Source of the DNA: Escherichia phage vB_Eco_ORH_001
Sequence record: PV656001.1
Length of the DNA: 44,456 nt
Direction: 5' to 3' (one strand)
The notes under the pieces are model-generated. The model did no database searches. It saw only the letters and a list, made by a program, of their open reading frames with translations, and was not told where the DNA came from. The position numbers were made by a program, and so were the translations under genes. Within the stretch, counting starts at the first letter, position 1, and each line of letters begins with the position of its first letter. Below are positions 17,598 to 17,628 of the stretch, one piece after another.

Positions 17598-17628
17598 GAA
17601 AAAGGCCCCGAAAGGGGCCTTAGTTTTA
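17598..17628. terminator. bidirectional rho-independent terminator, near-identical to 5411..5440
   Basis: aaaaaggcccc-gaaa-ggggcctt-agtttta; lies between the convergent island operon and the minus-strand ORF 17626..18258. Confidence 0.7.

Follow-up and report, generated by a model that had tools for sequence, protein, structure and literature searches.

Rho-independent terminators have already been annotated in the Guernseyvirinae, the phage subfamily to which the genera Kagunavirus and Jerseyvirus belong. The GenBank record of the Jerseyvirus vB_SenS_PVP-SE2 (NC_073186.1) lists them in pairs, one per strand, at 18011-18051, 28908-28952, 29695-29736 and 39102-39142, and in the record of a second Jerseyvirus, Shelanagig (NC_073195.1), the hairpin at the major tail junction is likewise annotated as terminators on both strands. 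These entries are software predictions, and the paper on a sister phage names ARNold plus Mfold. In T4-like phages the PeSL element is a composite of about 100 bp with a strong sigma-70 early promoter and a Shine-Dalgarno sequence (PMC2839356), and its role in the shuffling of modules has been shown, with recombination demonstrated by mini-circle PCR (PMC2839356, PMC4122927). In Escherichia coli, according to bioRxiv 10.1101/2022.10.23.513370, the bidirectional class of Ju, Li and Liu (2019) does not resemble intrinsic terminators and is driven by the collision of RNA polymerases. The subject of the present analysis is a pair of near-identical hairpins in the genome of Escherichia phage vB_Eco_ORH_001 (PV656001.1), whose entire sequence of 44,456 nucleotides is referred to below as the window. 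The two hairpins, at 5411..5440 (site 1) and 17598..17628 (site 2), are very probably copies of one bidirectional Rho-independent (intrinsic) terminator that is conserved throughout this phage lineage.

This phage is a Kagunavirus; its nearest kin belong to the same genus, and its more distant kin are members of Jerseyvirus. The window is 100% identical to Escherichia phage vB_Eco_Hrm2 (PV656002.1) when the latter is reverse-complemented and rotated; PV656002.1 is 44,455 bases long, one base less than the window. The PV656002.1 record carries no annotation of the two terminators.

Two hairpin cassettes between convergent genes

Site 1 (GAAAAGGCCCCGTTTGGGGCCTTAGTTTTA) reads GAAA-AAGGCCCC-GTTT-GGGGCCTT-AGTTTTA and site 2 (GAAAAAGGCCCCGAAAGGGGCCTTAGTTTTA, 31 nt) reads GAAAA-AAGGCCCC-GAAA-GGGGCCTT-AGTTTTA. 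Both sequences lie where the initial annotation had placed them, apart from a first G that had been dropped from its string for site 2. They have in common a stem of 8 bp (AAGGCCCC/GGGGCCTT) with six G-C pairs, a 4-nt loop, and the flanks GAAAA(A) upstream and AGTTTTA downstream, which would provide a U-tail for transcripts of both strands. The earlier statement that the sites differ only in the loop is nearly right: three of the four loop bases do differ (GTTT against GAAA), and there is in addition one extra A in the left A-run. Local alignment limits the likeness to about 40 nt, that is, the 28-nt spacers, the stop codons and a few bases more. When the window was searched with the pattern AAAGGCCCCNNNNGGGGCCTT, allowing up to two mismatches, only sites 1 and 2 were found, each on both strands; shuffled versions of the window gave a mean of 0.03 matches and none of 100 shuffles reached four. 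An in-frame 12-mer (CTGGAGAAGTTA, encoding LEKL) recurs at 5386-5397 and 17556-17567, in the open reading frames (ORFs) upstream of the two sites, and might have marked these ORFs as paralogues; we treat it as chance, because the alignment stops at about 40 nt and the proteins fall into different PHROGs (5915 and 2452).

Each cassette constitutes the complete 28-nt spacer between two convergent stop codons, and the stem begins 4-5 nt past each of the four stops. At site 1, the TAG of the last ORF of the replication operon (5272..5409, + strand; 45 aa, coiled-coil-like, phrog_5915) abuts the cassette, ending one base before it, while the final TTA of the cassette is the TAA of the tailspike/tail fiber gene (5438..7675, - strand). 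At site 2, the last ORF of a block of plus-strand genes within the tail cluster (17391..17597, +; 68 aa, phrog_2452) ends in TAA, and the final TTA of the cassette is the TAA of a free-standing HNH endonuclease gene (17626..18258, -; phrog_953, E = 1.5e-70). The identities of the tail tube, HNH, tailspike, SbcD-like and Imm genes of the window were checked against Pfam and PHROGs. Both junctions are thus convergent, as had been claimed, and the earlier account of what each site closes is correct for this genome: the replication operon against the tailspike, and the plus-strand block (the "island" of the initial annotation) against the HNH gene.

The isolated hairpins have predicted folding energies of -16.0 (+) and -15.5 (-) kcal/mol at site 1 and of -16.8 (+) and -15.4 (-) kcal/mol at site 2. 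In their 61-nt contexts the fold z-scores run from -2.9 to -4.7, better than almost all shuffles. A scan of positions 1-20000 with a terminator consensus returned these hairpins as its three top matches; both strands were flagged at site 2, but the plus strand alone at site 1. The tails that follow the stem are UUAGUUUUAU on the plus strand and UUUUCUCU or UUUUUCUU on the minus strand; the criterion of the scan for a U-rich tract was passed on the plus strand at both sites and on the minus strand at site 2. A consensus scan for promoters found no match overlapping either site, the 28-nt spacer consisting of the hairpin and its tails alone, and Rfam gave zero matches at its gathering threshold anywhere in the window. 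The bidirectional-terminator appearance first noticed is borne out by stem, fold and position, and also by orthologues annotated as rho-independent terminators on both strands.

If the element works as its features suggest, the same 8-bp stem and tetraloop would form in the RNA of either strand and be followed by a U-rich tail, so that host RNA polymerase arriving from either side would be released at the cassette. Site 1 would then end both the replication operon and the late operon that runs from chaperone to tailspike. Site 2 would end the antisense block and the late operon that runs from head to tail tube, extended here through the HNH gene. The transcription map of the genome would accordingly comprise four units ended by two shared terminators. 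That transcription actually stops at the sites, in both directions, we infer from these features, and several points weigh against the reading. Our literature search found no mapping of transcript 3' ends for Guernseyvirinae, and the one Kagunavirus transcriptome paper reports gene-level counts with no mention of terminators. The minus-strand tail at site 1 (UUCUCUAC) is weak and failed the scan criterion; termination of the tailspike transcript there may be inefficient or may rely on the collision of RNA polymerases. On the plus strand the U-tract is broken (UUAGUUUU, UU-AG-UUUU). Finally, the stem does not vary between genera or between paralogous sites, and junctions 1 and 2 show no compensatory change. 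This is tighter than structure alone needs; a constraint on the sequence itself or homogenisation of the copies could also be at work.

Distribution and variation of the hairpin in the Guernseyvirinae

The exact cassette, AAGGCCCC-N4-GGGGCCTTAGTTTTA, occurs in 79 stretches of IMG/VR, most of them on contigs of 41-45 kb. When these copies were sorted by their flanking genes, the majority proved to adjoin homologues of the genes of this phage, at the same two junctions. Since this search demanded the stem itself, a second sample was drawn independently of the hairpin: 25 related loci were recovered through a conserved 851-aa tail protein, whose identity across the sample descends from 98% to 65%, and all their strong hairpins were catalogued. 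In this sample the exact 8-bp stem is present at the tailspike/replication junction in all 23 loci that cover it, and at the tail-tube junction in 20 of 21, the exception (L093) having a single substitution. The relatives carry further copies at the ssb/DNA polymerase junction, after a Hoc-like gene and between the portal and head morphogenesis genes.

A BLAST search with the 40-nt cassette extended this to 953 phage records and 2668 places, mostly in Salmonella and Escherichia phages, with two to eight places per Guernseyvirinae record among the matches listed. Among Jerseyviruses, PVP-SE2 has five copies and JD01 six, and the sequences at the annotated terminator coordinates of PVP-SE2 are this same hairpin, at orthologous junctions. 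Hairpins of the form GGCCCC-tetraloop-GGGGCC are also annotated as terminators in the unrelated phages Miller (of Citrobacter), SU57 and AKS96. A host origin of the cassette was considered and dropped: a search that is blind to stem-only matches gave no good match for it among 5,426 complete E. coli genomes. A near-match, about 86% identical to the 40-nt cassette, is found once each in 242 of these 5,426 genomes, 227 of its 243 places being on plasmids; the sites overlap no annotated feature (for example NZ_CP029748.1, 263427-263460).

We attribute the likeness of sites 1 and 2 to this ancestral, subfamily-wide family of terminator hairpins and not to delivery by an island. The sites would be members of a small paralogous family, three to six hairpins per genome, that was already present in the ancestor of Kagunavirus and Jerseyvirus; purifying selection would keep the stem and the loop alone would drift or flip. 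The sequence, position and fold of the element, its conservation across the family and its independence from island content are matters of direct observation. The element type is nonetheless well known and its orthologues are already annotated; the observation is real but ordinary, and essentially already known.

Variation is confined almost wholly to the loop, of which each junction has a characteristic version. At a given junction the loops are often exact reverse complements of each other (GAAA/TTTC, GTTT/AAAC, GGAA/TTCC, GTAA/TTAC); at one and the same junction PVP-SE2 has TTTC and JD01 has GAAA, within 300-nt flanks that are 98-99% identical. There are 25 such reverse-complement pairs with flanks more than 90% identical, and since these loops occur amid near-identical flanks they point to the loop having been inverted between the stem arms repeatedly and recently. 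Such an inversion is known for hairpins in other genomes. Examples of the flip are L107 (29695-29736) against L108 (1773-1790), and many IMG/VR loci.

The cassette is asymmetric, and between Kagunavirus and Jerseyvirus the whole of it, including the 4-nt spacers GAAA and AGTT that adjoin the stop codons, is inverted relative to the genes. This inversion is visible at the major tail junction when site 2 of the window (17598-17628) is set against the Jerseyvirus loci L090-L104; in L051 the cassette is perfectly palindromic, with TAAAACT on both sides. In L088 (218-237 and 11644-11663) the tail-tube junction has two traits typical of the tailspike junction, an AAAC loop and a short T-run; this suggests an ectopic conversion between the two terminator copies. 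Ongoing homogenisation of the two copies was rejected as a general process: the loops within a genome generally differ, and exchange-like patterns are confined to L088 and a few IMG/VR contigs. The family thus offers a natural data set on the evolution of a terminator hairpin, with an invariant stem, a freely flipping loop and insertions at the edges. Its small size, apparent strength in both directions and conservation in hundreds of enterobacterial phages could also make the terminator a useful part for synthetic biology.

Island, insertions and other explanations of the repeat

The initial annotation had suggested either that the island came with a terminator copy of its own or that the sequence is also a recombination or recognition site. 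On the first reading, a recently acquired plus-strand block would have brought site 2 with it and the repeat would mark the island boundary. The block in question (15653..17597, +) lies within the tail genes and contains a small ORF, an Imm superinfection-immunity gene (15819-16010), a gene for an SbcD-like metallophosphoesterase (16050-17180) and two small ORFs. Site 2 does sit at the 3' end of this block, morons classically bring their own terminator (discussed in PMC2839356), and in Jerseyvirus an extra copy of the cassette accompanies an added antirepressor gene. The Imm/SbcD block, however, is conserved across the subfamily: nearly all the sampled relatives, whether Kagunavirus or Jerseyvirus, have it at 75-92% DNA identity. 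There is, besides, no copy of the cassette at its 5' end. Moreover, the hairpin does not need the block. In L098 an unrelated antisense ORF (5058-5467; 120 aa, with a signal-peptide-like N-terminus, MKTLLAVLLGSSMVLSFSAEA...) replaces Imm/SbcD and the same hairpin still follows the tail-tube gene; in L060 the hairpin stands between the tail tube and chaperone genes with no island gene detected between them. Across the contigs at least four different genes adjoin the island side of the hairpin, which also recurs at three other junctions that have nothing to do with the island. The hairpin is therefore a backbone feature on the 3' end of the tail-tube gene, whose other side is used by a variable antisense cargo, and it is no mark of a newly arrived island. 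The same terminator being common in related genomes whatever their island content, we regard delivery by the island as highly improbable.

The HNH gene, which the initial annotation had taken as the partner of the island, is a recent insertion; the ancestral partner is the tail-tube gene, whose stop codon is embedded in the cassette in relatives without the insertion. All 25 relatives lack a match to the segment 17630-18365, which makes the HNH insertion specific to this lineage. It entered exactly between the tail-tube TAA and the cassette, and the HNH TAA now occupies the position of the tail-tube TAA of the relatives. A distinct hairpin, AAAGAGAGGG-gtcgtg-CCCTCTCTTT followed by CCTTTAT (18298..18323, -; -16.5 kcal/mol), came in with the insertion, upstream of the HNH gene, and now follows the tail-tube gene (18366..19532, -; Phage_tube_2, E = 4.8e-39). 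One IMG/VR contig (L027) has the same HNH arrangement as 17626-18365 of the window. A second HNH endonuclease gene (4794-5272; HNH_3 plus an AP2-like domain) lies between the helicase gene and the small ORF that ends the replication operon. It is absent from most relatives, in which the BLAST blocks end at 4793 and restart at 5273, an insertion of the homing-endonuclease type away from the cassette. That the cassette travels with HNH endonucleases, or is targeted by them, was rejected because both HNH genes are missing in most or all of the relatives that keep the cassette and because their orientations to it differ.

Could the cassette, besides terminating transcription, act as a short linker for the homologous exchange, insertion or deletion of tailspike, antisense cargo and homing endonuclease modules? 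In BLAST comparisons with the 25 relatives, 12 ends of homology blocks fall within 5 nt of the cassette at site 1 and 30 at site 2, where a uniform distribution would give about one each, and in L081, L083 and L097 the cassette is an isolated conserved patch of 36-39 nt with non-homologous DNA on both sides. The variety of genes on its island side (at least four), the HNH insertion exactly at its edge, the Jerseyvirus antirepressor gene flanked by two copies, the junction-1-type loop and flank at junction 2 of L088 and the inversion of the asymmetric cassette between the genera are all in keeping with such a role. The phage also encodes its own annealing protein and exonuclease, and the PeSL elements (PMC2839356, PMC4122927) supply a precedent. 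On the other hand, the cassette is the only non-coding DNA at the junctions and viable insertions must fall at its edges; selection alone therefore predicts the same clustering of breakpoints. The available identity extends over only some 30 nt, the other HNH insertion (4794-5272) lies away from any cassette, recombination intermediates have not been observed, and the flanks of single- and double-cassette Jerseyviruses do not form the simple chimera that a cassette-to-cassette crossover should leave. On balance, a linker function in addition to termination is possible but rather doubtful. Still more tentative, and in our opinion unlikely, is its wider form, in which the 30-nt cassette would be a portable, orientation-independent linker, a promoter-less counterpart of PeSL through which Guernseyvirinae siphophages swap tailspikes and accessory genes by short-homology recombination. 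In this wider form the frequent loop inversions and the inversion of the whole cassette would be footprints of hairpin-mediated DNA transactions. If a linker role were true, PeSL-type shuffling would extend from the T4-like myophages to small siphophages and help to explain tailspike swapping.

Two further explanations leave termination secondary or the resemblance fortuitous. The invariant stem could be the recognition site of a phage or host protein, such as a DNA- or RNA-binding regulator or a nuclease. All 16 stem positions are invariant in 43 of the 44 sampled orthologous sites, beside genes whose DNA identity falls to about 70%; E. coli chromosomes have essentially no copy of the cassette with its flanks, and in the window HNH genes lie close to both copies. 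Yet most or all of the relatives with the cassette lack those HNH genes, and variation and inversion are tolerated in the loop, where contacts are usually made. The orthologue at the Hoc site tolerates a compensatory pair change, other terminators of the genome use other stems, and terminator annotations also stand at the weaker matches in unrelated phages. Since a terminator with an 8-bp stem is harmed by a single mutation, the invariance needs no binding protein, and we consider a recognition site very unlikely. As to coincidence, that is, the convergence of two independent GC-rich terminators from among the few strong 8-bp stems that exist, the GGCCCC-tetraloop-GGGGCC terminators of Miller, SU57 and AKS96 indicate that such stems do arise elsewhere. 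But the identity of sites 1 and 2 reaches into the asymmetric flanks GAAAA and AGTTTTA, which are superfluous for pairing; a pattern of 23 specified bases occurs 79 times in IMG/VR, mostly beside homologues on 41-45 kb contigs; and the shuffled windows give 0.03 matches. Chance resemblance is hardly credible, and a conserved bidirectional terminator remains the preferred explanation of both sites.

In many Jerseyvirus genomes an antirepressor/Roi-like DNA-binding gene of 223 aa lies between the island and the major tail gene, and it is bracketed by hairpins in L090 (2949-3755), L107 (28908-29736) and L106 (3743-4551). A simple cassette-by-cassette deletion was tried as the explanation for Jerseyviruses with and without this gene and set aside, the flanks misfitting the expected chimera.

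Neighbouring features and comparison with known systems

Three other hairpins of the window stand at junctions where relatives carry members of the family. A degenerate third member, GAGGCCC-ttcatt-GGGCCTT followed by TTTACTAA (44006..44027, +; -13.4 kcal/mol), lies between the co-directional genes for the ssDNA-binding protein and the DNA polymerase; in many relatives this junction has AAGGCCC-aatgaa-GGGCCTT. The Hoc-like head decoration gene is followed by a terminator, TAAAAAGCCCC-gttaa-GGGGCTTTTTA (25575..25601, -; -17.2 kcal/mol), that is orthologous to AAGGCCCC cassettes of relatives and shows a compensatory change of a G:C to an A:T pair, which supports selection on structure. At the portal/head morphogenesis junction, where relatives hold a AAGGCCCC cassette, there is a short related hairpin, AGCCCC-GAAA-GGGGCT (27150..27165, -; -12.1 kcal/mol).

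On the minus strand, the tail assembly chaperone gene is preceded by a promoter-like site (15771..15799; a consensus match only), from which late transcription would resume past the island; a promoter is annotated at the corresponding position in PVP-SE2. None of the 25 sampled relatives matches the receptor-binding part of the tailspike at the DNA level. Within the head genes, PV656002.1 annotates a 551-aa "hypothetical protein" at 22885-24540 (+), opposite genes that are left unannotated: those of the major head protein (22927-23976, -; phrog_247, E = 4e-117) and of the scaffold (23979-24734, -; phrog_206, E = 1e-55). This ORF has neither a Pfam nor a PHROG match and for that reason is probably a wrong gene call. 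In PVP-SE2 (366 aa) and in JD01 (279 aa), too, the strand opposite the coat gene has a long stop-free frame.

The closest described counterparts of the two cassettes are those of PVP-SE2 and Shelanagig, which have the same AAGGCCCC-N4-GGGGCCTT stem, annotated on both strands, at the orthologous junctions: between the helicase-side ORF and the tailspike, and between the island or antirepressor gene and the major tail protein. Their annotations are predictions of the MFOLD, ARNold or TransTerm type and not experiments. In the Jerseyvirus cassettes the 4-nt spacers beside the stem have the opposite orientation with respect to the genes, and the copies number five to six per genome, against two perfect copies, one degenerate copy and two stem variants here. 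With the bidirectional terminators of convergent E. coli genes, as presented in bioRxiv 10.1101/2022.10.23.513370 and treated in TransTermHP (PMC1852404), the phage cassettes share the principle that one element sets both 3' ends within a compact spacer. Unlike the collision-driven class, however, the phage cassette resembles a classical hairpin with a U-tract on both strands.

The T4-like PeSL (PMC2839356, PMC4122927) is similar in being a conserved stem-loop terminator with G/C tracts that is repeated in intergenic spacers, is tied to variable genes and to the boundaries of insertions, deletions and replacements, and has some variable genes between two copies. Here too the copies coincide with insertion and replacement boundaries, the ends of homology blocks being enriched 12-fold and 30-fold at the two sites. 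The phage element nevertheless measures only 28-30 nt and has no promoter, which PeSL by definition includes; and whereas PeSLs are found by the dozen in the hyperplastic regions of a genome, here there are two to six copies at operon ends. Lastly, the antisense Imm/SbcD-like block inside the tail cluster is reminiscent of a moron, a gene inserted in a phage late operon together with a promoter and terminator of its own (a concept discussed in PMC2839356), since it ends at a terminator and its cargo varies among relatives. It departs from that model in having its terminator in common with the resident tail-tube gene; the terminator stays in place when the cargo changes and is therefore a part of the phage backbone.

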